DNA of 64,000 nucleotides from Candidatus Borrarchaeum weybense (GCA_019057385.1 JAHQJS010000004.1:598408-662407); one strand, 5' to 3'. Counted from the first letter of the stretch, positions 8,226-59,486 are shown. Notes: generated by a model not told the origin, from the sequence alone. Numbers and translations: made by a program.

Positions 8226-10184
8226 ATGCTCTCTCGACGAGATCAATTACAAAACAATGGAGCCTATGACATGATAGACCAAAACCAAGATATCTCAAAA
8301 CTTGAGATCGTTGAAGACAAACTTACGAAAGTCTTTCGATCGAAGGTTATGTATGAACACATATTAAACGGAGTAACTCATTTGATCATTATAATTGATG
8401 ACACTCTTAATCTTATCTGGGCAAACAAAGCAGCAGTGGAAAAGTGTGGCGATATTATCGGAAAAAAGAGCTACAAAGTATATAATAGTCTCGATTCAGA
8501 GTGTCCCGATGGTATTGTGAGACAAGTACTTGAAGATGAAGAAGTATTTGAATTAGAGCGTTCAATTACATTTCCGAACGGTACACAGGGAGATTTTATT
8601 ATCACTAGTTCTCCCCTCAAAGATTTAACTGGAAATGCTGTCGCGGTTCTACAAATATTCACAGATATTAGTGAACGTAAACAGGCTGAAGAGAATTTAA
8701 AAAAGAGTGAATTGCATTTTCGTACACTCATCGATAATATCTCAGAAATTATTACTGTATTGGACTCTAAGGGAGAAATCAGTTATCAAAGTTCGTCGAT
8801 TGAACTAGTTCTTGGTTACTCAATTGAAAAAATCCTCGAAAAATCTTTTTTTGACTTTGTACATCCCGATGATCTTCCATTGATACTTAAGGTTTTCCAA
8901 GATATTATCAAAAAGCCAGGAGCATCTCGTACTCTTAAATATCGTTTTCATCATAAGAATGGCTCGTGGCGTGTTCTTGAAAGTACTGGGAGAACGTTTA
9001 TTGACGATTCAGGTTCAATAAGTGTCATTTTAACTTCTCGCGATATAACTGAGAGAATGCACGCTGAAAAAGCTCTGATAAAGGCTCAAGAAGAATCGGC
9101 TGTTGCCAAGACGGCCAAACAAACAATTGGTTGTATGATGGATCCTGTTATCATTACTGATCTTCATGGAAAGATAACTCAATTTAATAATGCTTTTACA
9201 AATTTGTTAGGTTATGAATCAGAGATGATAGGTGAGTCTCCTACAAAAATTATTGTTGAAAAGGATGCTTTAAAGATTCAAGAGGCAATAAAAGAATGTC
9301 TTAAGACGGGATTTTTAAACAATTTCGAATGCACAACATTAAGTAAGTATGGAAAAAAAATCCCGGTTTTATTCAATATTACAGTGTTGAAGAACTCGAC
9401 GAATAAATCCATAGGTTTGATTTTTGATGCAAGAGATATTACTGAACAGAAAAAAGCAGAACAAAAATTGCAACTAACTTTAAACGATCTAGCTCGTTCT
9501 AATGCAGAACTGGAACAATTCGCCTATATTGCATCTCACGATCTGCAGGAACCACTACGCATGGTGGCAAGCTTTTTACAATTACTGGAGCGTCGCTATA
9601 AGGATAAGATCGACGACAACGCAAATGAGTTCATTGCCTATGCCGTAGATGGGGCAACTCGTATGCAGCAAATGATCAATGATCTGTTAAAATATTCCCG
9701 CGTCGGAACACGGGGTAACCCCCTCGAAAAAACTGATAGCAAGGCTGCCCTTGACTTGGCAATTGCAAATCTCACCGTAGCAATTAGAGAAAATAATGCA
9801 CTGATAACCAATGATCCTCTGCCGATTATTATGGCAGATTCATCTCAATTAATTCAAGTATTTCAGAATCTAATTGAAAATGCCATTAAATTCCGGAGAG
9901 ATGTACCACCAAAGATCCATATTTCTGCTGAACGTAAAAAAAACGAATGGATATTCTCTGTAAAAGATAATGGCATAGGTATAGACTCGAAACATTTCGA
10001 TCGCATTTTCTTAATCTTTCAAAGCCTACATAATAAGATTTCGTATCCAGGTTCGGGTATTGGTCTCTCGATCTGTAAAAAAATTGTTGAACGCCATGGA
10101 GGAAAAATATGGGTGGAATCACAGCATGGAAAGGGCTCAACATTTTATTTTTCAATTCCAGTCACAGGAGGAAAAAACTCATGA
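8226..10184 (+). CDS. PAS histidine kinase
   Basis: Three PAS domains, SHDLQEPLR, DNGIG, GSGIGL. Confidence 0.92.
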   Translation: MLSRRDQLQNNGAYDMIDQNQDISKLEIVEDKLTKVFRSKVMYEHILNGVTHLIIIIDDTLNLIWANKAAVEKCGDIIGKKSYKVYNSLDSECPDGIVRQVLEDEEVFELERSITFPNGTQGDFIITSSPLKDLTGNAVAVLQIFTDISERKQAEENLKKSELHFRTLIDNISEIITVLDSKGEISYQSSSIELVLGYSIEKILEKSFFDFVHPDDLPLILKVFQDIIKKPGASRTLKYRFHHKNGSWRVLESTGRTFIDDSGSISVILTSRDITERMHAEKALIKAQEESAVAKTAKQTIGCMMDPVIITDLHGKITQFNNAFTNLLGYESEMIGESPTKIIVEKDALKIQEAIKECLKTGFLNNFECTTLSKYGKKIPVLFNITVLKNSTNKSIGLIFDARDITEQKKAEQKLQLTLNDLARSNAELEQFAYIASHDLQEPLRMVASFLQLLERRYKDKIDDNANEFIAYAVDGATRMQQMINDLLKYSRVGTRGNPLEKTDSKAALDLAIANLTVAIRENNALITNDPLPIIMADSSQLIQVFQNLIENAIKFRRDVPPKIHISAERKKNEWIFSVKDNGIGIDSKHFDRIFLIFQSLHNKISYPGSGIGLSICKKIVERHGGKIWVESQHGKGSTFYFSIPVTGGKNS

Positions 10185-10651
10185 CTATACAAATAAGCCA
10201 AAAACCTCTTGAGATTTTATTAATTGAGGATAATCCTGGTGATGTTCGTCTGACGGTAGAAGGTTTTAGAGAAACCAAAGCATTTAATAAACTCAACGTA
10301 GCCTATGATGGCGAGGAAGCTATGGCTTTTCTACGACGAGAAGGTAAGTTTAAAAAAGCACCTCGTCCAGACCTCATTTTACTCGATCTTAATTTACCTA
10401 AGAAAGACGGTCGTGAGGTATTAGAAGAAATTAAAGATGATAGAGACCTGAAATGTATCCCCGTAGTGATCTTAACGACCTCTCATTCTATTGATGATAT
10501 TGAAGAGACGTATTCTAATCATGCTAATTGCTATATCACAAAACCAGTTGATCTGAATCAATTTGTCAAAGTAGTAAAATCCATTGATGACTTTTGGTTG
10601 AACATTGTGAAATTGCCGAATAAGGAGACTGGTGATTATAATGGAGGGTAA
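10181..10651 (+). CDS. Single-domain response regulator, Rcp1-like
   Basis: Paralog of 6988..7443; ATG at 10181 overlaps the kinase stop and follows GGAGG. Confidence 0.9.
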   Translation: MTIQISQKPLEILLIEDNPGDVRLTVEGFRETKAFNKLNVAYDGEEAMAFLRREGKFKKAPRPDLILLDLNLPKKDGREVLEEIKDDRDLKCIPVVILTTSHSIDDIEETYSNHANCYITKPVDLNQFVKVVKSIDDFWLNIVKLPNKETGDYNGG

Positions 10652-12200
10652 TCAACTCAGAGTCTTATTAATAGAAGATAATCCAGGCGATGCAAGGCTA
10701 ATACAAGAAGAACTTGCTGAAACAGACCCCTTATGTCATGAAATTACCCACTTCTTTCTGTTGCATGTTGATCGGCTCTCGCAAGGCCTTGAATGCCTTA
10801 AAAACGAAAAGATCGATATTGTACTTCTGGATCTCGGATTACCAGATAGCCTAGGGCTAGATACGTTCACAAAACTATATGCTTATTCGCCACAAGTACC
10901 GATTATTGTCTTGACTGGTTTTGATGATGAGAATCTGGCAGTTAAAGCTGTGGGAGAGGGTGCACAAGATTATCTTGTCAAAGGAAAATTTGATAAAAAC
11001 CTGCTGACACGTTCTATATGCTATGCTATTGAGCGACACCGATTGATCTCAAAATTAAGAGATTATGCAGAAAACCTTGAAAAAATGGTTGAAGAGAGAA
11101 CAATGGATCTTAAAGAGTCTGAGGAGCGCTATCGCGGTTTATACGAGTCATCTATAGATGGCATTGCCACAGCAGACATGAAGGGCAATCTTATAGACTG
11201 CAATCAGGCTTTCGCGGAATTGCTCGGCTATACAAAGGAGGAACTGCTTAAACTAACCTATTGGGATCTTGCGCCTAAGAAATGGCATGAACTCACGGCA
11301 AAAATCCACGCTGAACAGGTATTAACTAGGGGCTATTCTGATGTGTATGAAAAAGAATACATGAAGAAGGATGGAACAATCTTTCCCATCTCTATTAGAT
11401 CGTGGATCATCAAAGACAAGGATGACAAGTCAGTGGGAACCTGGGCAATCGTTCAGGACATCACTGAAAGATATAAGATCATGGAAATGAAGGATCGGTT
11501 TATATCAGTCGCCACCCATGAACTTCGAACACCACTTATCTCGGTCAAGGGATACATTGACTTCCTTCTATCTAAGAATTTGAACGTAACACCCGAGTTA
11601 CTTGAGTCGAGCCTGCAAGTGGTGAATCGCAACACTGACCGGTTGATTTATCTGACCGACGAGTTGTTGGATATCCAGCGCATTAAATCTGGACGAATCT
11701 CCTTAAATTTGGAGTTTCAGGATCTTATTAATATCATAAATCATTGTATAGAGGAAATTCAACCCTTTATTGATGAGAAAAAACAAAATCTCAACTTGAA
11801 AATTCCAGAAAGGCCCTTAAAGATTCGAGTGGATCGTGTTCGCCTTAGCCAAATTATTATGAACATTCTTAATAATGCTACTAAATTTACGCCAGAAGGC
11901 GGAGACATAACGCTTGCCGTTGAAGAGACGGACGGTGTCATGCAAGTTCAAGTTTCAGACAATGGAATTGGAATTCGTGAGGAGGATTTGGAGAAAGTTT
12001 TTCGCCCCTTCTCGGACATAAAGAAGCCAACCTACATCAAGGGCACAGGTCTTGGTCTCAGCGTAACCAAAGGTCTGGTGGAAGCACATGGAGGCAGGAT
12101 CTGGGCACATTCAGATGGAGAGGATCGAGGAGCAGCTTTCACTTTTACCTTACCAAATACAGAATCAAACCCAAAACCAAAGGTAAAGGAGGTAAATTAA
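10632..12200 (+). CDS. Hybrid REC-PAS-histidine kinase
   Basis: N-terminal REC, PAS, H-box THELRTPL, NATKF, DNGIG, GTGLGL. Confidence 0.92.
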   Translation: MIIMEGNQLRVLLIEDNPGDARLIQEELAETDPLCHEITHFFLLHVDRLSQGLECLKNEKIDIVLLDLGLPDSLGLDTFTKLYAYSPQVPIIVLTGFDDENLAVKAVGEGAQDYLVKGKFDKNLLTRSICYAIERHRLISKLRDYAENLEKMVEERTMDLKESEERYRGLYESSIDGIATADMKGNLIDCNQAFAELLGYTKEELLKLTYWDLAPKKWHELTAKIHAEQVLTRGYSDVYEKEYMKKDGTIFPISIRSWIIKDKDDKSVGTWAIVQDITERYKIMEMKDRFISVATHELRTPLISVKGYIDFLLSKNLNVTPELLESSLQVVNRNTDRLIYLTDELLDIQRIKSGRISLNLEFQDLINIINHCIEEIQPFIDEKKQNLNLKIPERPLKIRVDRVRLSQIIMNILNNATKFTPEGGDITLAVEETDGVMQVQVSDNGIGIREEDLEKVFRPFSDIKKPTYIKGTGLGLSVTKGLVEAHGGRIWAHSDGEDRGAAFTFTLPNTESNPKPKVKEVN

Positions 12201-12202
12201 TT

Positions 12203-13075
12203 TTGACAGATAAAATTTTGATTGTAGATGACGAACCAGATACTGTTAACCTAGCAAAAATGATTTTGGAGAGAGATGGCTACCACGTAATTAGTGCATA
12301 TAATTGGGATGACGCTATAAAGAAGGCGGAATCGGAGATGCCGGACTTTATCTACTTAGACATGGTTATGCCAGGTAAAAGTGGCTTGGAGGTCTGCAAA
12401 ATTTTGAAGGCCCAGCCCAAGACCAAGAAAATTCCGGTAGTGATGTTTACAGCTCTTGGACGGGATGTTGATAAAAAGTTAAGCAAGGAAGCCGGGGCTG
12501 ACGGTCATTTTTTGAAACCCTTCGAGGCTGAGGATTTAATTGCCGAGATAAAAAAACATCTAAAATTTATTCGCCCTGAAAAGTTTTCTAATACCCTGGA
12601 ACTTGATCATGAACGGTTAAAGGGTAGAAAAATCCTGCTAGAGTTCGATCCCGTAGTTCCTTATGAAAGGGTGGTCAGAGATTTTGTGATGGAATGTCAG
12701 GTACACGAAGAAGTAATTGTTCTCTTAGGAAACAAAGCAAGTGTAGTCTATCAAACGCTTCAAAAATATGATGGTCTAGAGTTTATCGCTTTGATCCCCC
12801 AACCGATACTTACCCCTATTCTAGAGACAAATGCTGGAACACCAGTAAACATAATCTGTGATAATCTAACAGACCTTATTTTCTCTATGGGCTTCCAGGC
12901 CACATATAAATTCATAAAACACACGTTAGAACGACTAACCACAGTTTTATCGACTGCCCTATTTCTTTTGAACCCCAAAGCTCACCCGTCAAACGAAACC
13001 TATAGTATCAGAAGCCTCTTTAGCGATCAAATAACCTTTGGAAAAGATGGACTGACAATTAATAAGTTAACTTAA
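12203..13075 (+). CDS. Response regulator with REC fused to an inactivated KaiC/RecA-fold (DUF835-like) output domain
   Basis: REC (IVDDEP, LDMVMP, KPF); C-terminal ILLEFDP...IICDNLTDL...LFLLNPKAH...LFSDQI pattern lacking a Walker A lysine. Confidence 0.7.
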   Translation: MTDKILIVDDEPDTVNLAKMILERDGYHVISAYNWDDAIKKAESEMPDFIYLDMVMPGKSGLEVCKILKAQPKTKKIPVVMFTALGRDVDKKLSKEAGADGHFLKPFEAEDLIAEIKKHLKFIRPEKFSNTLELDHERLKGRKILLEFDPVVPYERVVRDFVMECQVHEEVIVLLGNKASVVYQTLQKYDGLEFIALIPQPILTPILETNAGTPVNIICDNLTDLIFSMGFQATYKFIKHTLERLTTVLSTALFLLNPKAHPSNETYSIRSLFSDQITFGKDGLTINKLT

Positions 13076-13288
13076 TTCGGAGGCAAAAATTTGTGCGTTG
13101 ATCTTGAGAATTAAGGAAATCCAAGAATACCATCGCAAGGCACCGAAGAACTCATAAAAGGACACTAGAGCACCAGAAAACTGAAGGAACTCATAATTTG
13201 ACGTGAGATCATGTTGATGCCAGACTTCAAGGTCTGACAAAGCGATCCCAAGATTCTTGAAGTTCGAATATTAAGTGGTAGACAATCA

Positions 13289-13493
13289 GTGAGCTACCTC
13301 ATGCTCAAGCGCTGAGGCTTCCTGCTTCAACGACAGACTCGATCTCCTTGACGGGTTACGGAGGTCTCGATGTTCACAGGCTTAATATCCCTATGCCCCG
13401 TAGGTACTCATAGGCTCTATCACCAACAAAGTATATAAACCCAAGTCATTCATCACCACGCTACAGCAATGGTGCTTTCTTGCTTAGTTGTTT
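13289..13493 (-). mobile_element. Non-autonomous IS200/IS605 mini-element: left end + promoter + tnpB 3' end/omega-RNA + right end
   Basis: On the minus strand, target TTAC (13494-13497) is followed 15 nt later by guide AAAG and a hairpin, then TTTATATA, a VPTGHRDIKPV tnpB-tail remnant, and GAAG-hairpin-TAGCTCAC. The left end closely matches 62577-62650. Confidence 0.8.
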
Positions 13494-13636
13494 GTAAGAA
13501 TTATTGATGGTTACTCTCGTCTAAATTATGTAAATAATAACATTTGAATTAAATCAAAAAAAATATGAATAAGTTAAGTGGGTTTTACTCAGAGTATTTC
13601 TCTCTGTTAATTTAAGGTAAATTTAAGATCTGTGAG

Positions 13637-14317
13637 GTGCTTCAGATGGAACGTTTGAATACAGGAATTAGAGGTTTAGACCAACTTATTGATGACGGAA
13701 TTCCCCGCTCATGGGTTATTCTCATTAAAGGGCCAGCCGGCTGTGGAAAAACAACTTTTGGTCTTCAGTTTTTGTGTTATGGCGCAGAAAATGACGAGTT
13801 TGGTATTTATATCACTATAGGTGAGCCAATATCACATGTAAAAAAATATATTCGATTTAACTTGAATCTGGAAAAATTAACAACAGAAGGCAAGCTTATT
13901 CTTGTTGATACAAAACTCATAAAACTTTCTGATCTCAGTGAGATTTTACAAGATGCAATAGGTAAGTATAACGCACAAAGAATTGTTATTGACTCATTTA
14001 CATCTCTCATTTCCCTCTATAAAGATGAACCGACACTTCGTCAAGAATTTTCTAATTTTCTTGATGTGGTAAGACAAGTGAAGAATGCCACGTGGATGAT
14101 TATAGAAGAAGGAACGCCGCGCTCTCCTGATGCCCTTAGTGAGTTTATGGCAGATGGAGTTATTAATCTCACTTATTTCTTAAGAGGAAACCATCGTGTT
14201 AGGGGAATAGAGATTACTAAGATGAGAGGAACTGCGCATTCTGAAGGAATTCATCTCTATAAGTTTAATGAAGATGGAATTACGGTGTATCCCGAGGAAA
14301 AAGTGTTTGAAATGTAA
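13637..14317 (+). CDS. Single-domain KaiC-like ATPase (RAD55/KaiC family)
   Basis: TGIRGLD, Walker A GPAGCGKT, IVIDS, KMRGT. Confidence 0.9.
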   Translation: MLQMERLNTGIRGLDQLIDDGIPRSWVILIKGPAGCGKTTFGLQFLCYGAENDEFGIYITIGEPISHVKKYIRFNLNLEKLTTEGKLILVDTKLIKLSDLSEILQDAIGKYNAQRIVIDSFTSLISLYKDEPTLRQEFSNFLDVVRQVKNATWMIIEEGTPRSPDALSEFMADGVINLTYFLRGNHRVRGIEITKMRGTAHSEGIHLYKFNEDGITVYPEEKVFEM

Positions 14318-14449
14318 TTGTGATCGTATCTATTGGCGGACATTGTATTCTGAATGTAATTCTAAGATATTCTATCATATAACTTGACACAAAAAAATGA
14401 TTCGATCCAATTTGCAAGTCACACAAAGATGATTATCGAGGTATGACAC

Positions 14450-14968
14450 GTGTTCCTGCTCGTGAAAGTGATCGTTATTGGCGATGGGGCTGTCGGGAAA
14501 ACAACTCTATCAACTCACTTCACATTCAGCAAATTTATTGAATATTACAAAATGACAATAGGAGTAGATTTTTTTGCGAAAGATGTGAAGATAGGAAAGG
14601 ATGTAGTCAGATTGCAAATTTGGGATATGGCAGGTCAAGAAAAGTTCGCATTCATGCGCCCTAATTATTATGACGGTGCAAGCGGAGGATTTTTAGTATA
14701 CGATGTAACTCGTCCTGAAACCTTTAAGGATCTTGATATGTGGCTACACGAGGTATATAAAAGATGCGGGAAGATTCCTCTTTTTTTGTTAGGCAATAAA
14801 ATAGATTTAGAGACTCGCAAGGTTAAAAACTCGCAAGCCGAACAATACGCGGAAAAACAGGGACTAACGTATTACGAAACCTCTGCGAAAACAGGAGAAT
14901 GCGTCTTTGATGTCTTTTCTAAGCTAGCACATACGTTATATAATAAATATTTAGAGTCTGGGAATTAA
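14450..14968 (+). CDS. Rab-like small GTPase
   Basis: GDGAVGKT, TIGVDF, WDMAGQE, NKID, ETSAK; no C-terminal Cys prenylation motif. Confidence 0.93.
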   Translation: MFLLVKVIVIGDGAVGKTTLSTHFTFSKFIEYYKMTIGVDFFAKDVKIGKDVVRLQIWDMAGQEKFAFMRPNYYDGASGGFLVYDVTRPETFKDLDMWLHEVYKRCGKIPLFLLGNKIDLETRKVKNSQAEQYAEKQGLTYYETSAKTGECVFDVFSKLAHTLYNKYLESGN

Positions 14969-15080
14969 GCATTATGGTTGATAAGGATCTTGAAGAAATA
15001 GCATTAAAGAGGTTTCGCACAATTAGAAACATACAAAACCTCTATTTAAAATCTGATGGAAAAAATCGGAGAAATTAGAT

Positions 15081-16286
15081 GTGATTTTAAGCGTTTACAT
15101 CATCAATTCTTTCTCTGGCCTTTGCCTATTATCATGGTCAAGAATACTAAAGAAATTTGATGATACTTTAATTGGTGGCTTTCTCATTGCAATAAGCAGA
15201 TTTGGTCGAGAAATTGGGGGAGAAAACGCCCAATTTGTTGATTTTCGTGAAAGGAAATTCATATTTGCATACAAAGACAAGCTGATTTTTGTTATTGAAA
15301 TAACAAGTTATAAAGAAGTGCAAATAGGACGTAGACTTCTGCAACAAATAATGGTTGCATTTTTCAGGGACTATGGAGGCGCGAAAGAAATAATCACTGA
15401 AACTGATGTCTCGATATTGTGGCCTTTTTGTGATACAATTGAAGAACTGATTTCAAGTCAAATTGTTGAATTAGAAAGGCTAGTCGAAAGCATTCAAAAA
15501 AGTTCAAAGGCCTCAGGCATACTATTGCTAAATTTAAGTGGAGACATATTCAGTACCACGCCAAGACAAATAGTAGATCTTGGCGAGAAATTTATCAAGA
15601 GCGTTAAAATGATACTTAGTGCTCACGAGTCAGTTACAAAAGATGATAGTCCATTTGAGATCGTCATTAATGGACTTCATCAGACTTTTTACAGCCGCCG
15701 AATAATTGGAGATCATTTTATCGTGGTTTACGGACCAAAGGAAATGGGAGAGGATAATTTAAGGATCTTAATTCAGGGACATCTAGATGAACTTGCGAGC
15801 GTCTTAATGACTTTTGGTCATATTAGACCAAGAGCAGTAGGTACGGAGACCACAATTCAGAAATTTCTGGAATGGAGTGCTAAACACCCCCTGTTGTCAC
15901 AATTAAGATTTCAAGAGTATGAAGCTTATTTCGATACTATAATAAATGCAGAAAAAGGGCTTTACGAATTTGATTGTGTCCTAAAATCGCCGACTAATAT
16001 TGCATTTATTCGAATTTATAGACATTTTGGCCAATCTGATAGCAAATTCATCCAAAGATTTTTAGATGATGCTAATTCGGTATGCAGAAAACTAGATTCC
16101 TCGCCAGTTTTGTTTTTAGCCATAAGTAAAGATAATTTCTCAAAGAAGGCTAGGGAAATCATAAAAAAAACAATGATACAGTATAAAGACAAGTATTTTC
16201 AATTAGTTCTTTGTAAGCAAACTAACGATGAATTTCAAATTATTGAAGGATTAAGAGATAAAAAAAGCAAAGGAGGAATTCTTTGA
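15081..16286 (+). CDS. Longin + roadblock + degenerate PD-(D/E)xK (Mrr-like) fusion protein
   Basis: N-terminal VYIIN..SGLCL..LIGGFLIAISRF (longin); middle GILLLNLSGDI..IVING..HFIVVYG (roadblock); C-terminal YEFDCVL..FLAIS..FSKKA (restriction-endonuclease-like, ExK absent). Confidence 0.6.
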   Translation: MILSVYIINSFSGLCLLSWSRILKKFDDTLIGGFLIAISRFGREIGGENAQFVDFRERKFIFAYKDKLIFVIEITSYKEVQIGRRLLQQIMVAFFRDYGGAKEIITETDVSILWPFCDTIEELISSQIVELERLVESIQKSSKASGILLLNLSGDIFSTTPRQIVDLGEKFIKSVKMILSAHESVTKDDSPFEIVINGLHQTFYSRRIIGDHFIVVYGPKEMGEDNLRILIQGHLDELASVLMTFGHIRPRAVGTETTIQKFLEWSAKHPLLSQLRFQEYEAYFDTIINAEKGLYEFDCVLKSPTNIAFIRIYRHFGQSDSKFIQRFLDDANSVCRKLDSSPVLFLAISKDNFSKKAREIIKKTMIQYKDKYFQLVLCKQTNDEFQIIEGLRDKKSKGGIL

Positions 16287-17035
16287 GGAAAGTTCCCACA
16301 GGAATTAAAGGGCTTGACAAATTACTTGAAGGTGGTGTTCCCGAAAGTTGGGGGGTTCTGTTGACTGGTAGCACTGGAACAGGGAAAACAACTCTTGCAG
16401 TACAATATCTATACAATGGCTGTGTGCAATATGACGAGCCCGGAGTATTTGTTAGTTTAGAAGAAGACAATCAGAAGATTGCGCGTGTGATGAGATTATT
16501 TGGATGGGATCTTGAGGTTCTACAGAACGACAAGAAACTTGTAATGATAAATGCTGTTCCAAAAAGAACTCCCGGCAAATCAGGATACGTTATTGAAACC
16601 CCATTTTTTTCTCGAACCTTTAGCTTTGATTCAATTTGCGATTTACTAGAAGACAAGATAAAGGAAACAAACGCAAAACGCGTTGTCATTGATGGCTTAA
16701 GCGGTCTCACACTTCAATATCAGAACGAATTCGAAATTCGACAAGGTCTTTTAGATATTACAAATGTCATTAGCGAAGCAGGCTGCACTTCGCTCTATAC
16801 TTCAGAAATGCCTGAGGGAAAACCAGGGATCAGCAGATTTGGAGTCGAAGAATTCATCGCTTCTGGTGTCATTGTACTTTATTATCTTCGTGAAAGAGGA
16901 AAAAGAATACGTGCCATAGAAATTCGAAAAATGCGAGGTACTAACCATGACGAATCTCTGCATCCATATAAAATTACTGAAAAAGGAATCGTCGTCTTTC
17001 CGGAAGAAATAATTTTTATGGAAAAAGATGTGTAA
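16283..17035 (+). CDS. Single-domain KaiC-like ATPase
   Basis: GSTGTGKT, SLEE, VVIDG, GVEEF, KMRGT; TTGA overlap with the upstream gene. Confidence 0.92.
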   Translation: MRKVPTGIKGLDKLLEGGVPESWGVLLTGSTGTGKTTLAVQYLYNGCVQYDEPGVFVSLEEDNQKIARVMRLFGWDLEVLQNDKKLVMINAVPKRTPGKSGYVIETPFFSRTFSFDSICDLLEDKIKETNAKRVVIDGLSGLTLQYQNEFEIRQGLLDITNVISEAGCTSLYTSEMPEGKPGISRFGVEEFIASGVIVLYYLRERGKRIRAIEIRKMRGTNHDESLHPYKITEKGIVVFPEEIIFMEKDV

Positions 17036-17629: not shown

Positions 17630-18100
17630 TTGAAAGAGGACGAATTAATCAGCCGTAAACACACACAAACTTCAGATAAGGAGAAAGCAAAAAAAGATCC
17701 TATTTCTGGTACCGGAAATATTTTGATAATGGAAGATGACGATGTTATCAGAGAGGCACTAGGAGAGATATTAACTCATTTAGGCTATCAGATTGAACTC
17801 GCTAAGAATGGTGAAGAAGCTATCTCTTTGTTTAAAGCAGCAAAATCAGTAGGACAGTCTTTTAATTTAGTAATAATAGATTTAACAATTCGTTGTGGGA
17901 TGGGCGGCAAAGAAGCAATTATGAAGTTGCTTGAAATAGATCCTAATGTTAAAGCTCTTGTTTCCAGCGCCTATTCAATAGAATCAGTTATGTCTGATTA
18001 TAAGAGTTACGGATTCTGCGGCGTTGTTTCCAAACCCTACAATATTTCAGAATTAAGTGAAATCATATCGGAAATAATTGGTAGTAATTGCGTAAAATGA
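17630..18100 (+). CDS. Orphan receiver domain resembling the C-terminal REC of hybrid kinases
   Basis: GTGNILIMEDD, DLTI..GMGGKE, VSSAYS, KPY. Confidence 0.8.
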   Translation: MKEDELISRKHTQTSDKEKAKKDPISGTGNILIMEDDDVIREALGEILTHLGYQIELAKNGEEAISLFKAAKSVGQSFNLVIIDLTIRCGMGGKEAIMKLLEIDPNVKALVSSAYSIESVMSDYKSYGFCGVVSKPYNISELSEIISEIIGSNCVK

Positions 18101-21535: not shown

Positions 21536-21711
21536 TTCATCTCCCTGGTCATCCTCCGACATTTTTTCCTTTTTTCTGATTTATTATCGCGAAGTTTTCT
21601 TGCTTATTCTTGTAGTTTATTTAACGTATGACTCTATGTACGAAAAAATTAAAACTTGAAAAGAAAAGCATATCAACCAGAAGGACTTTTTTAATTCTAG
21701 GAGGCAAAGTC

Positions 21712-22572
21712 TTGCTTAACAGTATTTGGATCATCGACAAAGACACGGGTACATGTGTATTCCTGAGGAGGTATGGGTATGGCATACCAGATGATCAAAC
21801 ATTGATTTCACGTTTCTTCTCTGCCCTTTGGAACTTTTTTCAAGAAATTGAGGGCCGGGGAATATCTACTTTGACTACAACTGAACTTGACTTTGCTCTA
21901 GCGGAGTCAGAAAAACTGCTCTTCATAGTTGCCACTGCCCGTGATTCAGTTCATCAATTGAAGATGGTCAGTTGGGTCAAGAATTTAAAAGAAGAGTTTT
22001 TGAAATCTTATGAAGAGGACTCTAATTTTCAAGACTCAAGATTTGTTGATGAATTGAATGAAAAACTAGATCAGGTATTAGATGCTTGGATTGACGAATA
22101 TATTGACGAATCGGAAGTTTTCTCTACAGCAGATTTACGAAGGGCATCACAATTAGGGACCGAACTCAATCAACTGTTGACAATGCGCTTTGGCCATCAA
22201 GGTCTTGAAACCCTTAAATCCTTGGATGGATTAAAAACAGTAAAAGATGTTCAGGAAGAGTCTGGACTCCCTAATAAAGAATTAAAAGAACTCTTTCGCA
22301 TTAGTATTCAACACGGTCTCATCGAACAATCACAAAGGGCCACAGATCTGCGTATACCCTATCGAACAACAAGCACGCCTGAAGTTTTCGCTTATGGAAC
22401 TCCTCTGAGAAATAGAGTATGGAATAGATTTGGAAATCGAGGAATTGATGTCCTTGGAACGATCGATGGGATACGCCATGTAAGAGATATTTCTGCTTTT
22501 TTGGGGATTGATATGGATATCGTGAAACAAATACTAGAATTAGCCCAAAAAGAGGGTTTAATCGAATGGTAG
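21712..22572 (+). CDS. Longin domain + two winged-helix repeats (NPRL2-like architecture)
   Basis: IWIIDKDTGTCVF..LISRFFSALWNF longin; repeats RFG..G...L..(L/I)DG...V.D...GLIE; TTG start after GGAGG. Confidence 0.7.
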   Translation: MLNSIWIIDKDTGTCVFLRRYGYGIPDDQTLISRFFSALWNFFQEIEGRGISTLTTTELDFALAESEKLLFIVATARDSVHQLKMVSWVKNLKEEFLKSYEEDSNFQDSRFVDELNEKLDQVLDAWIDEYIDESEVFSTADLRRASQLGTELNQLLTMRFGHQGLETLKSLDGLKTVKDVQEESGLPNKELKELFRISIQHGLIEQSQRATDLRIPYRTTSTPEVFAYGTPLRNRVWNRFGNRGIDVLGTIDGIRHVRDISAFLGIDMDIVKQILELAQKEGLIEW

Positions 22573-22606
22573 GTTATTAAGACTTAGTTTTGAATACAAT
22601 GGGTAA

Positions 22607-23161
22607 TTATAATTCTAACGCTTCGACATCTATAACAATCTGTTCTGTTAGTTGAGTGAAGGTATCTTCCACATGTAGTCCATCTTTTGCAGATGTTTCA
22701 AAGAAGGGTATACCACGTTCATCCGCAAAACTTTGTCCTTCATCAACTCCAACAACTCTTAACTCCTCAAGATCCTTTTTCGTACCTATTAAGATCGATG
22801 GGATGTTTCCACAATGCTTTTCGATATCACCAAACCATTTTGGCAAATTTTGGAAACTCTTACGATTTGTGATATCATAACAACAGAGTGCTCCTAGCGC
22901 TCCCCGATAATATAACGGACGGACATAAGAAAAGCGTTCTTGGCCTCCTGTATCCCATATTTGTAGCTTTACAGTAGAAATTTTACTCTTGCTTTCTTGG
23001 CTTATTTTCAATATCTTGATTGAGAAATCTACACCAATAGTCATTTTATAACTTTCTCGAAACTGCCCTGTGGTAAATTTACGCGTAAGCGATGTTTTAC
23101 CGACCGCTCCATCTCCGACAACGATCACCTTGAACAAATAATCGAAAGTCATTAAATTCAC
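22607..23161 (-). CDS. Rab-like small GTPase
   Basis: FDYLFK, GDGAVGKT, TIGVDF, WDTGGQE, TKKD, ETSAK. Confidence 0.93.
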   Translation of the reverse strand: MNLMTFDYLFKVIVVGDGAVGKTSLTRKFTTGQFRESYKMTIGVDFSIKILKISQESKSKISTVKLQIWDTGGQERFSYVRPLYYRGALGALCCYDITNRKSFQNLPKWFGDIEKHCGNIPSILIGTKKDLEELRVVGVDEGQSFADERGIPFFETSAKDGLHVEDTFTQLTEQIVIDVEALEL

Positions 23162-23467
23162 TTCATTCTTGTCATTTTAGTACGTATTTCTTCCCTTGTT
23201 AATTATAACTGCAGACAAGTAAAAAAGATTTTTCCATAGTATAAGTATTTCTTTCGTTTACTATACACATTTTTTGTATTTTCTAACACGTTCTAAAACT
23301 TTGATTTTCTTGGAAAAAGCGTTCTTATATCTGTTTTGTGGTTGCGGAAAAAAGTCTTAGGTAATAATATTATACGAAAGTTAAATATATTAGAGCGTAT
23401 CAAGTTTTGTTGTCTAACACTTTCCATTCGAAGCTTTCGTTATTAAGCTTATAATTGAGGTGGACAA

Positions 23468-23842
23468 ATGTCTGTTGAACCACGAGAGGATTTAATGGAA
23501 ATATTAAGTGAAATTGAGAGTTCAACTGATTTAGAGGCATGTGCAATTGTGACGAAAGAAGGATTAAGGATAGCCCATGCAACTGGCACTAATACTGATG
23601 CTGATATTTTTTCAGCGCTTACTGCTGTTATACTATCGATGGGTTATAAAGCTATAAATGAACTTGGTCACGGTGATTTCAAAGAAGTAATTATAAGAGG
23701 AACTGAGGGTTATACAATTGTAACCAGCATCGATAACGAGCACGTATTGGTAGGTGCTGGTCGTAATCCGATTCGAATTGGTTATTCTGCACTTGTTTTA
23801 AGAAAATATGCGCTGAACATGGCTTCAGTACTTGAAAAGTAA
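23468..23842 (+). CDS. Roadblock/LC7 (MglB/Ragulator-like) protein
   Basis: ACAIVTKEGL, SALTA, ELGHG, VIIRG pattern; 124 aa. Confidence 0.9.
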   Translation: MSVEPREDLMEILSEIESSTDLEACAIVTKEGLRIAHATGTNTDADIFSALTAVILSMGYKAINELGHGDFKEVIIRGTEGYTIVTSIDNEHVLVGAGRNPIRIGYSALVLRKYALNMASVLEK

Positions 23843-48835: not shown

Positions 48836-49396
48836 TTGAGCGTGCGTCATGTGAAAGTCATTTTTGCAGGTGATGGAGCCGTAGGCAAAACAGCAGTTGT
48901 AAATAGGTTTACAAGGGGGGAATATGGCGCCAATTACAAAATGACGATTGGTACTAATATTTCTGTGCACAAAAGCGTGAAAAATGGAATCGAAGTGACG
49001 CTTGTCTGCTGGGATCTCGGTGGACAACCAAGATTTGAAGCCGTAAGAGGATCCTTCTATCTTGGAGCACAGGTTATTGTTTTAGTGTATGACGTTACAT
49101 CTTCGGGCAGTTTCAAAAACTTAGCCAACTGGCTTGAAGAAGTGAATCGAGCTATTAGTGAATCGAACTATGAAGGCTATAAGGGTATTATAATTGGAAA
49201 TAAAGTAGATTTACCAGCTGAATTTCGTGCAGTAGATATTGACGAAGCAAAATCATTTGCTGAAGCGATTGGTTTTATGTATCTTGAAACATCTGCAAAG
49301 GATGGTAACGGAATTACTGACTTGGTTGAAATGCTTGTCGATAGTGCCTTTGTACAGCCATCACAAGAATTAGTGGAACTTGACACATTGTCTTAA
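48836..49396 (+). CDS. Rab-like small GTPase
   Basis: GDGAVGKT, TIG, WDLGGQ, NKVD, ETSAK. Confidence 0.92.
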   Translation: MSVRHVKVIFAGDGAVGKTAVVNRFTRGEYGANYKMTIGTNISVHKSVKNGIEVTLVCWDLGGQPRFEAVRGSFYLGAQVIVLVYDVTSSGSFKNLANWLEEVNRAISESNYEGYKGIIIGNKVDLPAEFRAVDIDEAKSFAEAIGFMYLETSAKDGNGITDLVEMLVDSAFVQPSQELVELDTLS

Positions 49397-49608
49397 CAGG
49401 CAGTTTATATATGTAGAACTAAGCCGATTTATACCGCTCTATTTGAACTCGATTTTCTTAAAACATGACTGGATTATGCAAAAAGCCATATCACATCTAG
49501 TAATTTTATTGTGGATGGTTTTTCTAGAAAACTTAAATTCTATAATTTGGAACTTTCTTGTGAAGTGACATCTTCCTACGTTTTTGCGCGCCCGCTGGAG
49601 AGAGGAAT

Positions 49609-50187
49609 ATGGGGATTCAGCAAGTTAAAATCGCTTTTGTAGGAGACGGATCAGTCGGCAAGACAAGTTTAGTTAATTCATTCACTGGTAAATCCAGCTT
49701 CATGGAACAGTACTTATTAACAATTGGTGTCAATATTGTCGTACATAAACTTGAACTAGATGATGATATAACAATAAACTTCGCGATTTGGGATATGGGG
49801 GGTCAAAAACGCTTTATTGCAGTCCGCCCCACGTTTTACCTGGGCTCACAACTTGTTGTTTATGTATTTGATCTTACTAATAAAAATAGCTTCGATAATC
49901 TGATCAGGTGGCTTGAAGAGGTGAATAGGAGCTGTGCTAGCCATAAAGGCATCATTGTTGGCAATAAGGTAGATTTATCTGAATCTCGTGTTGTAGATTT
50001 TGAAACAGCAAAAGAATTTGCAGAAGCGAGAGGTTTTAAATACCTTGAAACCTCTGCAAAAGACGGTACTGGAACAATTGACTTAGTTGAACTGCTCACT
50101 GATTATGTCGTTGTTCGCCCTTCTCAGAAATCAATGGAACCTGCACCTCTATTTAGACCGTACTTCTTGTATATGGGGCGAGCTTAA
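49609..50187 (+). CDS. Rab-like small GTPase
   Basis: GDGSVGKT, TIG, WDMGGQ, NKVD, ETSAK. Confidence 0.92.
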   Translation: MGIQQVKIAFVGDGSVGKTSLVNSFTGKSSFMEQYLLTIGVNIVVHKLELDDDITINFAIWDMGGQKRFIAVRPTFYLGSQLVVYVFDLTNKNSFDNLIRWLEEVNRSCASHKGIIVGNKVDLSESRVVDFETAKEFAEARGFKYLETSAKDGTGTIDLVELLTDYVVVRPSQKSMEPAPLFRPYFLYMGRA

Positions 50188-50371
50188 CAAATTTTGCAAA
50201 TTATGTTAGAGGATGATTCTTATCAAACTTTGTCACCTAAAGGAAACAATTTTTCGCAACTACACTTCTATTGTGGATAATTTTTCTAGAAAACATAAAA
50301 CACACATTTATCATAGTGTCATACAAGATTCTACAACCTATCCTTTTATCGCGCGCCCGCGGGGGTATATA

Positions 50372-50986
50372 GTGGTAGTTATTCAAGCCAAAATTGCTTT
50401 CGTTGGAGATGGAACTGTCGGAAAGACCAGTCTAGTAAATTCTTTCACTGGTAAGACGAATAAGACGCGTTTCATGGAAGCTTATAAAATGACTATCGGT
50501 GTAAACATCGTTGTTCATCCAACAGAGCGAGATAATGGAACAAAGATAAATCTGTGTATCTGGGATTTAGGTGGTCAGCCTCGCTTCGAATCTGTGAGAG
50601 GTTCCTTCTATAGGGGGTCTCAATTGATTGTGTATGTTTATGATCTTACAAATAAAGAGAGTTTTGACAATTTAGCTAATTGGCTTGATGAGATTCATAA
50701 GTCCGTCCCAGCTTCTACCTATAACGGTATTGTAGTTGGTAACAAAGTTGATTTGGCTGAATACCGGGTCGTAGCTCTTGAAAATGCAAGAGATTTTTCA
50801 GAAACACAGGGCTTTCAATATATTGAAGCTTCGGCTAAAGATGGCACTGGAACACTGGAATTAATTGACATGATTGCAGAAAATATATTAAAGAAGAATT
50901 CAATTCCGGATGATAAACACTCGACACAGAACATAGTAAAACAAATTGGGGTAGTATCCGGACCTTCTCTAACTAGTTTTTTCTAA
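50372..50986 (+). CDS. Rab-like small GTPase
   Basis: GDGTVGKT, WDLGGQ, NKVD, EASAK; start probably GTG at 50372 by alignment with its paralogs. Confidence 0.9.
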   Translation: MVVIQAKIAFVGDGTVGKTSLVNSFTGKTNKTRFMEAYKMTIGVNIVVHPTERDNGTKINLCIWDLGGQPRFESVRGSFYRGSQLIVYVYDLTNKESFDNLANWLDEIHKSVPASTYNGIVVGNKVDLAEYRVVALENARDFSETQGFQYIEASAKDGTGTLELIDMIAENILKKNSIPDDKHSTQNIVKQIGVVSGPSLTSFF

Positions 50987-51164
50987 TCTCTCGAAATTAA
51001 TAAAACTCATATAGTTTAAATCATAATATCGTTTTCTAACTTTACACCTTGCCGAAATAACACTAGTGTCAAAGGAATGTAAAATCCTTCACAACTCTCA
51101 GAAAGGAAAAAATCTATATATACCATTCAAATCTAAAAAAAATCTATAAATGAATACGTGAGGG

Positions 51165-51794
51165 ATGCTTATCGTCATTCATAATGTTTATATGTACAGG
51201 GATTCTGGTGAATTGTTATACCATGAAGATTACCATTCCATATCTCAGGAAGTCGATCCTGTAGTTGTGAGCGGCTTTTTTTCTGCCATACAGTCCTTTG
51301 GCAAAACGATGACTGGCGATGAAAGTGATATTAAAGAGATTGACACAGAGAAATTTTTGATCACTTTTAGCAGGGATCCTGATTTTGGTGTAACTGTAGC
51401 ACTAGTGGTCGATCCAGAAGATAGAAAATGGGCTGGTACCGCAATTCTACAGTTATTAAAATTAGTTAAAGAAAAACTACGTGGCTTCCCTGAATCTCTA
51501 TTCATCACAGAATTACCCCTTAAAAGCTTAAAAGGATTTGATGAAGAAGTCGATAAGATCATCAGGCAATTTGTTGACAAAGCTATAAGTCAAAAAAAGA
51601 AGGTAATTCCGATTCTACTAAAGAAGGATAATATTAAAGTCTCGTTGGAACAAAGCCAAATTTTGAATCTTGTAGATGGTGAACGTTCGATTTCGGAGAT
51701 CGCTGATCTTTTAAATTTGCTCTATTTCCGTGTTATGATGATATGTTTAGACTTGAAGAAAAGGGGCATTATAGATACGAAGGAGATATTTTAG
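51165..51794 (+). CDS. Longin + winged-helix protein (NPRL2-like)
   Basis: YMYRDSGELLY..VSGFFSAIQSF longin; VIPILL..QILNLVDGERSISEIA..RGII winged helix. Confidence 0.75.
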   Translation: MLIVIHNVYMYRDSGELLYHEDYHSISQEVDPVVVSGFFSAIQSFGKTMTGDESDIKEIDTEKFLITFSRDPDFGVTVALVVDPEDRKWAGTAILQLLKLVKEKLRGFPESLFITELPLKSLKGFDEEVDKIIRQFVDKAISQKKKVIPILLKKDNIKVSLEQSQILNLVDGERSISEIADLLNLLYFRVMMICLDLKKRGIIDTKEIF

Positions 51795-51943
51795 TTAACC
51801 TTTTAGACCGCAAATTTGTCCCCCCCTCTTAACACCAAAAGAAATATATTTAGCCCTTACGTCATTCTCTAAGAGAACTGTGAGTTTAGAATTTTGATTT
51901 TTCCATAACGGTTGAATTAAAGGAACTCAATGAGGTTAGAAAC

Positions 51944-52456
51944 ATGGGTGTTAAGGGTTGGCTAGGCCATAAATTAAAGACAAAGAAAACAAGTCTTGAA
52001 TTATATCAAGCGACAATTGCTGGTATTGTGGATACCTTCTTAGCAAAAAATGAGGGTGACATTGAGAAAACAAATGCAGATATCAAAGATCTTGGAGAAA
52101 GGATGACAGCAACACTTCTCATGGGTTACGCAGAAAAAATGAAAGAACATGCCCCTTCCTTTGAAAAATTTAAAGATACGTTGTCTTTAGCTTACAAATT
52201 CTACTCAGGAAATAGTTTTACAGATGCAGTATATGATCCACAACGCAAAGTAATCCGCTTTGAGGACGACAATTGCTTTATATGCCGTGGTATTACATTA
52301 TCTGATGACTTGAAAGATTTAAAATACTGTAGTGTAGTCCCAGGTATTTTTACTGGTGTAATGAAGCTTAGAGGTTTTCCTGCCGATTGTAACCAAATCG
52401 AATGCAAAGCTGCTGGTGGGCAGACGTGTGCTTATGAATTAGTGTCCTTTGAATGA
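51944..52456 (+). CDS. V4R / TRAPP Bet3-like protein
   Basis: KDLGERM helix, DNCFIC, YC...PG...G, ECKAAG...CAY Cys pattern. Confidence 0.75.
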   Translation: MGVKGWLGHKLKTKKTSLELYQATIAGIVDTFLAKNEGDIEKTNADIKDLGERMTATLLMGYAEKMKEHAPSFEKFKDTLSLAYKFYSGNSFTDAVYDPQRKVIRFEDDNCFICRGITLSDDLKDLKYCSVVPGIFTGVMKLRGFPADCNQIECKAAGGQTCAYELVSFE

Positions 52457-58736: not shown

Positions 58737-59486
58737 TTAACGTTTAGTTATTAAAATTTTCCCTTCTGTGAATTCATACCAGAATTCATCACGAGAGTAC
58801 TCACCTTCTGGCATTTTTTGGATCCTCAATGTGGTACGGAATGTATGCCATTCTTCTAACTCAGTCTTTGTAAGACTTATCACACCGTCAACCATATGCT
58901 CAAACGCTCTAAGGTAATGTTTCTGATGTGCATCGGCATGCACTATCATAACCAATACTCTGTCAGTTTTCTTCTGAGCTGCTATTTGGTGTTGTAAATA
59001 TGCCAATGGTGCTTTTTCGATATCAGAAGTTACAACCATTGTTGAAAAACTATCAACGACGCCTCGAATTTGAATCTGCGGGTTTACATGGAGTAGAGCT
59101 GACCTCACGACTTGGTTCACTTCACGAGTATCTGAGATGTTGCGGACGAAATATTTTGTCTCAGGTCTGAACTCTCCCCAAGAAAAGGGGTCTGTGAATG
59201 CATCAATATATATGAGTCGCCTAGTCTCTGTAACGATTTCGGGGTTTACTCCTAACGCCTTTAATAAACCTGAGTAAAATACAAATGGATGTTCTGTGCT
59301 TAAGATATATCCATATTCACCCTTCCGTAAAGCTTCCGTAAGAAATTTCATAACCAGTGGAGCTGGCTCTACACCAACTTTATCTTCTATTAATATAACT
59401 GATCCTCTAGGGATTCCTCCTCCTAATGCTAAATCTAATGTTGGAATACCAAATTTGGCTTTTGTAAGTTTTTTTTCTTCTTCCAA
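58737..59486 (-). CDS. Inactivated KaiC-like (RAD55) protein
   Basis: FGIPTLD..GGIPRGS start, Walker A degenerate (EDKVGVEP), VVDS, DGVI. Confidence 0.8.
   Translation of the reverse strand: MEEEKKLTKAKFGIPTLDLALGGGIPRGSVILIEDKVGVEPAPLVMKFLTEALRKGEYGYILSTEHPFVFYSGLLKALGVNPEIVTETRRLIYIDAFTDPFSWGEFRPETKYFVRNISDTREVNQVVRSALLHVNPQIQIRGVVDSFSTMVVTSDIEKAPLAYLQHQIAAQKKTDRVLVMIVHADAHQKHYLRAFEHMVDGVISLTKTELEEWHTFRTTLRIQKMPEGEYSRDEFWYEFTEGKILITKR

Follow-up and report, generated by a model that had tools for sequence, protein, structure and literature searches.

The locus described here raises the question of which partners, and possibly which sensory input, act with a Rab-like small GTPase in an uncultured Asgard archaeon, a group that encodes dozens of Ras-superfamily GTPases along with many longin and roadblock proteins. 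It lies in a 64,000-nucleotide stretch from the sediment metagenome organism Candidatus Borrarchaeum weybense (GCA_019057385.1 JAHQJS010000004.1:598408-662407), referred to as the window. Open reading frame (ORF) listing with Pfam and NCBIfam scans placed nine genes on the same strand between 8226 and 18100. Among them, a response regulator joining a receiver (REC) domain to an inactivated KaiC-like output (REC-iKaiC) is followed by a KaiC-family ATPase (KaiC1), a Rab-like GTPase, a longin-roadblock protein (X), and a second KaiC-family ATPase (KaiC2). About evenly balanced, in our judgment, is the case that these genes are two linked units of one accessory Asgard signaling island, with X connecting the Rab-like GTPase to a KaiC2-type ATPase in a module centered on KaiC. 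The first unit would be a two-component cascade (PAS kinase, REC, REC-PAS kinase) ending in REC-iKaiC, and the second an operon with its own promoter encoding KaiC1, the Rab-like GTPase, X, and KaiC2.

Proteins encoded between 12203 and 17035

The five genes on which the argument turns are the following.

12203..13075, plus strand: response regulator REC-iKaiC (P0001); N-terminal REC (Pfam, 88 bits) and, at the C terminus, a KaiC-like domain lacking a P-loop
13637..14317, plus strand: KaiC1, single-domain KaiC-family ATPase; Pfam PF06745 at 173.9 bits
14450..14968, plus strand: Rab-like small GTPase (P0004); Pfam Ras at 173.7 bits
15081..16286, plus strand: X (P0002), 401 amino acids (aa); longin, roadblock, and third domain in the AlphaFold2 (AF2) model
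16283..17035, plus strand: KaiC2 (P0005), single-domain KaiC-family ATPase; Pfam PF06745 at 240 bits

An initial annotation had proposed this same-strand succession after REC-iKaiC, with the second KaiC translationally coupled, and coordinates, Pfam matches, and fold calls agree with it. Its domain calls (REC-iKaiC, a pair of KaiC proteins that look active, a Rab-like GTPase, and a longin-roadblock fusion) also hold, as far as sequence comparison and structure models can establish them.

Both KaiC proteins lie far above the PF06745 cut-off of 26.6 bits and have the motifs of the family: Walker A GCGKTT, E63, and Walker B IVIDSF in KaiC1, and Walker A GTGKTT, E60/E61, and Walker B VVIDGL in KaiC2. 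Walker A, the catalytic Glu, and Walker B are invariant in the KaiC alignment (A5), and the two proteins share 34% identity. The start of KaiC1 is more likely the ATG at 13646, which is preceded by GAGGTG. The TTG start of KaiC2, preceded by AGGAGG, shares 4 nucleotides with the TGA stop of X (cTTTGA), a layout repeated in the related locus L009 that marks KaiC2 as translationally coupled to X at the level of gene structure. Circadian clock KaiC (TIGR02655/NF006799) was considered and rejected; the two proteins, 226 and 250 aa long, have one domain each and score 141 and 194 bits against a cut-off of 408. The Rab-like GTPase has the full set of small-GTPase motifs (G1 GDGAVGKT, T36, G3 WDMAGQE, G4 NKID, and G5 SAK), and among solved structures it is closest to Rab2B (6e-38) and a Thorarchaeota Rab, 7ezb (2.5e-37). 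Its tail ends in YLESGN and contains no Cys, so the C-terminal prenylation motif of eukaryotic Rab proper is absent.

REC-iKaiC begins with a complete PF00072 receiver (aa 1 to 120) having the D8/D9 acidic pocket, the phospho-acceptor D53, T83, and K105. Its KaiC-like domain spans aa ~140 to 290, and the AF2 model (pLDDT 91.7) gives this C-terminal part a β-α-β Rossmann-like fold. In Pfam, the C-terminal 165 residues matched DUF7090, DUF7504, and DUF835 below threshold (14 to 16 bits against cut-offs of 27 to 33). Homologs with E values down to 1e-22 exceed the DUF7504 threshold, P0069 falls narrowly below that of DUF7090 (26.6 versus 27 bits), and some homologs of the C-terminal domain carry a fusion to MEDS in place of REC.

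An internal comparison is offered by a paralogous triad in the same genome (G000:C4:900460-903453; L055 6443-9454), which encodes Rab' (71% to P0004), KaiC2' (68% to KaiC2), and the 436-aa protein P0078. In the latter, a KaiC/DUF7504 domain whose Walker A is intact precedes a C-terminal REC, and KaiC (76 bits) and DUF7504 (37 bits) match identical residues of that domain. When the C-terminal domain of REC-iKaiC was aligned to this domain with hhalign, the single pair gave an E value of 7.9e-4 and a probability of 25% over 129 collinear columns, placing EFDPVVPYER opposite the Walker A sequence GPPGVGKSE and IICDNLTDL opposite Walker B. EFDPVVPYER thus stands in place of GxxGxGK[ST], the P-loop being lost, and the motif E-F-D-P..Y-E is almost invariant across 21 homologs. 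Features from a protein language model (Atlas) pointed to DUF7504/KaiC-like clusters with a score of 0.90. Fold searches aligned REC+AAA+ regulators across 239 to 249 residues, but they used the whole P0001 model and their match lists are dominated by REC domains. Comparison of the iKaiC profile with the KaiC profile A5 was weak (hhalign probability just 2.4%), and the profile found no meaningful match among PDB sequences. The initial claim that the last regulator of the series bears an inactivated KaiC-fold output can be accepted as well supported by the replaced P-loop, the P0078 alignment, and the Atlas score; a KaiC-like fold is not proven by structure search.

The opposite domain order of P0001 and P0078 indicates that they are separate fusions, so that, at the two loci, a Rab-like GTPase and a KaiC2-type ATPase have different REC/KaiC-like fusions for neighbors. 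The Rab'-KaiC2'-(KaiC-REC) triad is retained in L066 and L068 at 76 to 77% identity. An IS605 OrfB-type gene lies upstream of the triad and a GIY-YIG gene downstream.

Protein X and its company

The AF2 model of X (pLDDT 84.3; predicted template modeling score [pTM] 0.54) divides the chain into three domains.

15081..15395, plus strand: X D1, longin fold, ββ-α-βββ-α, best conserved part (AF2 model; invariant residues in alignment A7)
15426..15815, plus strand: X D2, roadblock/LC7 fold, α-ββ-α-βββ-α (AF2 model)
15843..16250, plus strand: X D3, α/β domain, α-βββ-α-β-α order, PD-(D/E)xK-like topology (DSSP of the model; alignment A7)

In the model, D1 is a predicted longin that superposes on longins, and D2 a predicted MglB-like roadblock that superposes on roadblock proteins. 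Full-length X has zero Pfam matches, Robl_LC7 included, and homologs of D1 exceed the threshold of Fuz_longin_1 (28.5 and 40.8 bits). The best full-length Foldseek matches were Fuzzy, HPS, Mon1, and Ccz1, with E values of ~1e-8 (9rs9_A at 1.3e-8, 8zwc_B, and 9lol_B), in searches that used the whole model and returned lists dominated by domains 1 and 2. Because alignments (VIA) to Fuzzy, Mon1, and HPS end near residue 245 and D3 does not have the longin/roadblock strand order, X appears to resemble only the LD1-LD2 part of these proteins, and on the same model-based grounds its identification as a tri-longin-domain Rab guanine nucleotide exchange factor (GEF) subunit was rejected. The Atlas fold search returned an archaeal cluster matching X residues 1 to 223 in which 45 to 47% of members have Arf/Ras/Roc domains. 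Another Asgard family includes ~370-aa proteins (L050 6237-7355 and L051 6054-7163) whose N termini exceed Fuz_longin_1 (40.8 and 32.1 bits) and which are possible longin multidomain proteins.

Full-length X was found by profile search in 5 of 400 Asgard genomes, representing three lineages, while D1-type longins occur in 390 of the 400. A search of 1.8 billion representatives recovered five close relatives (53 to 100% identity), two distant full-length ones (24 to 26%), and many small proteins matching residues 1 to 140 only. There is no second full-length X-like gene in the genome, where the D2 and D3 profiles match X alone.

Gene order was compared across these relatives. The synteny that the initial annotation named as a check was seen in L009/L010, L012, and G307:C118, where the whole series from histidine kinase (HK) to KaiC2 is kept (HK-REC-REC/HK-REC-iKaiC-KaiC1-Rab-X-KaiC2); in G307:C118, REC-iKaiC lies ~360 bp from KaiC1. 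KaiC1-Rab-X-KaiC2 is retained with the downstream REC in L011, and the same four-gene order in L014, a 3.8-kb contig. X is 65 to 70% identical among relatives with retained order, and Rab stands between KaiC1 and X in all those at least 65% identical. At 53% identity (L013), the cluster consists of the end of a kinase gene, KaiC1, X, and KaiC2, without Rab and without REC-iKaiC. A distant clade (~25% identity) is Wukongarchaeia-type, labeled Wukongarchaeum yapensis and Hodarchaeota (L015, L047, L049, and L059 to L061). In its order HypD-DUF123-KaiC-X-Memo, X lies directly 3' of a 246-aa KaiC, without Rab or two-component genes. The third lineage, Heimdallarchaeota S146_22 (L048 3886-6512), has an X of 23% identity between a DSPc phosphatase gene (77 bits) and a ThiI-like gene.

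At ~25% identity KaiC and X alone remain together, which points to them as the old core of the cluster and to Rab as a later addition. A maximum likelihood tree fits this old pair: the X-adjacent Wukong-type KaiC clusters with KaiC1 and KaiC2/KaiC2' (support 87/89, long branches flagged), and six other KaiC paralogs of this genome fall outside that group.

These observations bear on a different view of X, as an adaptor or regulator of KaiC and not of a GTPase, with its longin and roadblock domains serving as a dimerization surface or scaffold and the Rab-like gene as a late passenger in the operon. The KaiC-X pair is the sole pairing surviving at ~25% identity, no Rab is found in the L013, Wukong-type, or Heimdall-type loci, and the paralogous triad keeps Rab' with KaiC2' in a locus without X. 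Moreover, the β1-β2 loop of X reads NSFSG and does not have the GP motif that marks Asgard longins of the GTPase-activating protein (GAP) type (PMC12290439). We nevertheless regard this view as unlikely. It does not account for the constant position of Rab between KaiC1 and X in closer relatives, platforms built from longin and roadblock folds are the usual ones for small GTPases (MglB, Ragulator, and Mon1-Ccz1), and the archaeal fold cluster matching X is rich in Arf/Ras/Roc members.

The arrangement of the genome also argues against an adaptor without a GTPase role. KaiC-family ORFs number 14 and D1-type (X-type) longin ORFs 22; Ras-family ORFs come to 32 with phmmer and 37 with Pfam. Of the 22 longin ORFs, four are separated from a Ras-family gene by no more than 500 bp, compared to an expected 0.32, and none of 500 permutations reached 4. 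At the same distance limit, two KaiC ORFs of this genome have a Ras-family neighbor (expected 0.24; P 0.01), counts that are not independent because they come from two loci. Together with the order retained where X is 65 to 70% identical, the KaiC figure indicates that chance does not account for the arrangement.

Other gene sets of related content were seen as well. At 21628-23842 in the window, a gene whose 314-aa product begins with an X-type longin and has weak winged helix-turn-helix matches is convergent with a Ras-family gene (22607-23161, minus strand) and followed by a Robl_LC7 roadblock gene (23468-23842), making a second candidate GTPase-regulator set. At 48836-52456, an X-type longin ORF (51165-51794; hidden Markov model E value, 4e-6) and a gene for a 170-aa protein with weak V4R and TRAPP matches (51944-52456) follow a tandem run of three Ras-family genes (48836-49396, 49609-50187, and 50213-50986). 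A third, divergent KaiC-family gene of the window (58737-59486, minus strand; 67 bits) adjoins the gene for a 562-aa protein without a Pfam match. Elsewhere (L056 5040-10094; G000:C6:532039-537093), tandem X-type longin genes encoding 179 and 185 aa lie ~3 kb from a same-strand tandem KaiC-family pair, with a gene resembling iron-containing alcohol dehydrogenase (Fe-ADH-like) between them.

The third domain of X raises yet another explanation, that the locus is defense or mobile-element cargo pairing an ATPase with a nuclease-fold protein. D3 (aa ~255 to 390) is predicted as α-βββ-α-β-α-ββ-ββ, with the strand order of a PD-(D/E)xK core, and has weak Atlas features of this kind (0.83: PDDEXK_3 and Mrr_cat). 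A miniature inverted-repeat transposable element (MITE) in the spacer upstream of KaiC1, the OrfB gene beside the paralogous triad, and the patchy spread of X across Asgard genomes would also suit such cargo. However, the catalytic D...(D/E)xK is not conserved in alignment A7: D298 is present in two of three lineages, and β3 (FIRIY, FLKVI, and IIHVF) contains no acidic residue. PADLOC returned no match for X and only weak partial matches on the REC or P-loop parts of the other proteins, the neighbors are signaling genes, and the Wukong-type pair sits amid housekeeping genes (HypD, Memo, and thymidylate kinase). A defense or mobile-element role is therefore highly improbable. Pfam searches with 10 members of the D3 family at E values up to 5 gave no match save scattered single hits, and PDB sequences gave none.

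The two-component genes and the spacer

The reading of two linked units also depends on what precedes KaiC1. The remaining genes of the same-strand series are as follows.

8226..10184, plus strand: sensor histidine kinase, 3 PAS + HisKA + HATPase_c (Pfam); ortholog in the same place in L009 and L012
10109..10651, plus strand: stand-alone REC (Pfam Response_reg, 68.7 bits)
10632..12200, plus strand: hybrid kinase, REC-PAS-HisKA-HATPase (Pfam)
17630..18100, plus strand: downstream stand-alone REC (Pfam REC, 59.9 bits); REC also downstream in L009 to L011

The hybrid kinase gene ends with a stop codon 2 nucleotides ahead of REC-iKaiC. The first stand-alone REC probably has its real start later than listed, close to the kinase stop, as in its 151- to 152-aa orthologs in L009 and L012, and membership of the downstream REC in the module is uncertain. 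The Pfam scan revealed no HPt domain in the upstream two-component genes, which therefore represent a cascade of kinase/receiver pairs and not the classical His-Asp-His-Asp relay. Rfam and tRNA scans found no match across the window.

REC-iKaiC and KaiC1 are parted by a 560-bp noncoding gap (13076 to 13636) containing three features.

13076..13287, no strand assigned: conserved noncoding block, ~75 to 80% nucleotide identity to L009 and L012; single copy in the genome
13288..13492, no strand assigned: MITE-like repeat of ~205 bp with 58 genome matches, ~20 near full length at 77 to 86% identity and the others partial or split
13551..13574, plus strand: A/T-rich promoter-like block, ~72 to 95 nucleotides 5' of the KaiC1 ATG; invariant in the window, L009, L012, and L013

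In relatives at 65% protein identity, the first block and the genes on either side of it are conserved to about the same degree. The block contains no conserved ORF, its reading frames being interrupted between relatives, and as a structured RNA it gave a weak consensus fold (−11.4 kcal/mol) with compensation in 1 of 41 pairs; it may be regulatory DNA. Neither L009 nor L012 has the MITE-like repeat in its aligned spacer, the repeat being an insertion in this genome only; outside it, the spacer is 75 to 80% identical to theirs. A scan for bacterial promoters did not rise above shuffled sequence, with a model ill suited to archaea. The conserved promoter-like block in the spacer suggests that KaiC1-Rab-X-KaiC2 is transcribed as a unit of its own, probably a separate operon with its own promoter.

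The length of the spacer and the conserved promoter-like block within it would also be expected if the two units were unrelated neighbors, the cascade serving other targets such as KaiC proteins elsewhere, the operon working independently, and their adjacency being an inherited, lineage-specific accident. Around REC-iKaiC homologs of 42 to 55% identity, a PAS kinase gene always precedes and the downstream genes vary. L013 has a kinase gene and no REC-iKaiC, the Wukong-type KaiC-X pair stands without two-component genes, and the 14 KaiC-family ORFs of the genome are possible other targets. On the other side, REC-iKaiC, X, and KaiC2 are all present in this genome (G000) and in G307, and are jointly absent from G308, which belongs to the same genus and is 100% complete. 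In G308 there is neither a match to the iKaiC domain nor a full-length X nor a KaiC2 ortholog, and the KaiC2' type (68%) is kept. In addition, the paralogous triad again unites a REC/KaiC-like fusion with Rab' and KaiC2', and even in L013 the kinase gene is still 5' of KaiC1. Chance adjacency is on this evidence a rather unlikely explanation, and the two-component cascade is probably a lineage-specific input through REC-iKaiC.

For two linked units centered on KaiC, several findings count on the negative side. The units are separated by 350 to 560 bp with a separate promoter-like block, and KaiC, MEDS, or DUF835 genes occur near only one of the three REC-iKaiC homologs at 42 to 55% identity. 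Rab is absent from the cluster in L013, which lacks REC-iKaiC as well, and from all distant X loci, and the Heimdall-type X has no KaiC neighbor. The Rab-KaiC2 pair is common to the locus and the paralogous triad by descent, and the conserved order at 65 to 70% identity may be plain inheritance. Within X itself, interdomain packing is uncertain at a pTM of 0.54, and the PD-(D/E)xK-like call for D3 is tentative. The chain drawn in the initial annotation, from two-component signaling through REC-iKaiC and KaiC to Rab and X, is partly supported, by the gene context of this locus and its close relatives, and is weakened by the spacer with its promoter block, the surroundings of REC-iKaiC homologs elsewhere, and the distant loci.

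A proposed KaiC-centered mechanism and related systems

From the observed domain identities and gene context we infer the following binding steps for the two-unit reading. Oligomers of the KaiC1/KaiC2-type ATPases would form the hub. X would be bound to KaiC2, perhaps through D3, and, with its longin and roadblock domains as a platform, would engage the Rab-like GTPase and shift the nucleotide state of the latter. The effect of X on the GTPase could be GAP-like, as with MglB, or GEF-like, as with LD1-LD2 of Mon1-Ccz1 and Fuzzy-Inturned. Phosphorylated REC-iKaiC would dock on or join the KaiC oligomer and thus relay sensor input. A more specific version, in which phospho-REC-iKaiC enters or caps a KaiC1/KaiC2 ring whose state (ATP or phosphorylation) sets X as a GAP or a GEF on the Rab-like GTPase, is improbable in our estimate. 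Were it correct, it would be an ATPase-timed GTPase regulator unlike any described and possibly a precursor of the longin/roadblock platforms that serve GTPases.

The locus supplies concrete, conserved candidate partners for orphan Asgard GTPases: a Rab-like GTPase, X, two KaiC proteins, and a possible sensor cascade. If the links hold, an archaeal KaiC hub would be joined to GTPase-regulator folds that eukaryotes use at membranes, and the stimulus of an Asgard small GTPase would become testable with five small soluble proteins. Among the papers searched, none joined KaiC, Asgard, and small GTPase, and none of relevance linked KaiC to roadblock and GTPase or tri-longin proteins to archaea.

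REC-DUF835 and REC-MEDS proteins have been described as iKaiC response regulators of archaea, present in Methanomicrobia, Thermoplasmata, Nitrososphaera-type archaea, and Methanosarcinaceae, with Asgard archaea not listed (PMC5847659). KaiC-centered signal transduction neighborhoods of archaea are attributed to Makarova, Galperin, and Koonin (2017) as cited in Galperin et al. (2018) (PMC5847659). The present locus is like these neighborhoods, to the extent that the citing article conveys them, in having single-domain KaiC genes near signaling genes, a regulator with an inactivated KaiC-like output, and, at the paralogous locus, a KaiC-REC fusion. What sets it apart is the operon, in which the KaiC genes stand together with those for a Rab-like GTPase and a longin-roadblock protein.

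Known GTPase regulators offer three further comparisons. In MglA-MglB and the Asgard Roadblock proteins (7f8m, 7yh1, and 9jue), the roadblock is homodimeric, whereas X is one three-domain chain, with a sequence identity of 12 to 17% to MglB and the Asgard Roadblock proteins. The tri-longin Rab GEF subunits (Mon1, Ccz1, Fuzzy, Inturned, HPS1, and HPS4) are similar to X in fold matches, in a size of ~400 aa, and in the Rab-like neighbor of X; X differs from them in that D3 is without the longin/roadblock strand order and no gene for a paralogous heterodimer partner lies nearby. In MK-D1, GTPase genes are generally found outside operons with roadblock, longin, and TRAPPC3 genes, which makes it hard to pair GTPases with regulators (Tran et al. 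2024, PMC10933270). The protein types encoded here are the same, but in this genome a GTPase and its candidate regulator are paired in a conserved operon, and such pairing is enriched genome-wide.

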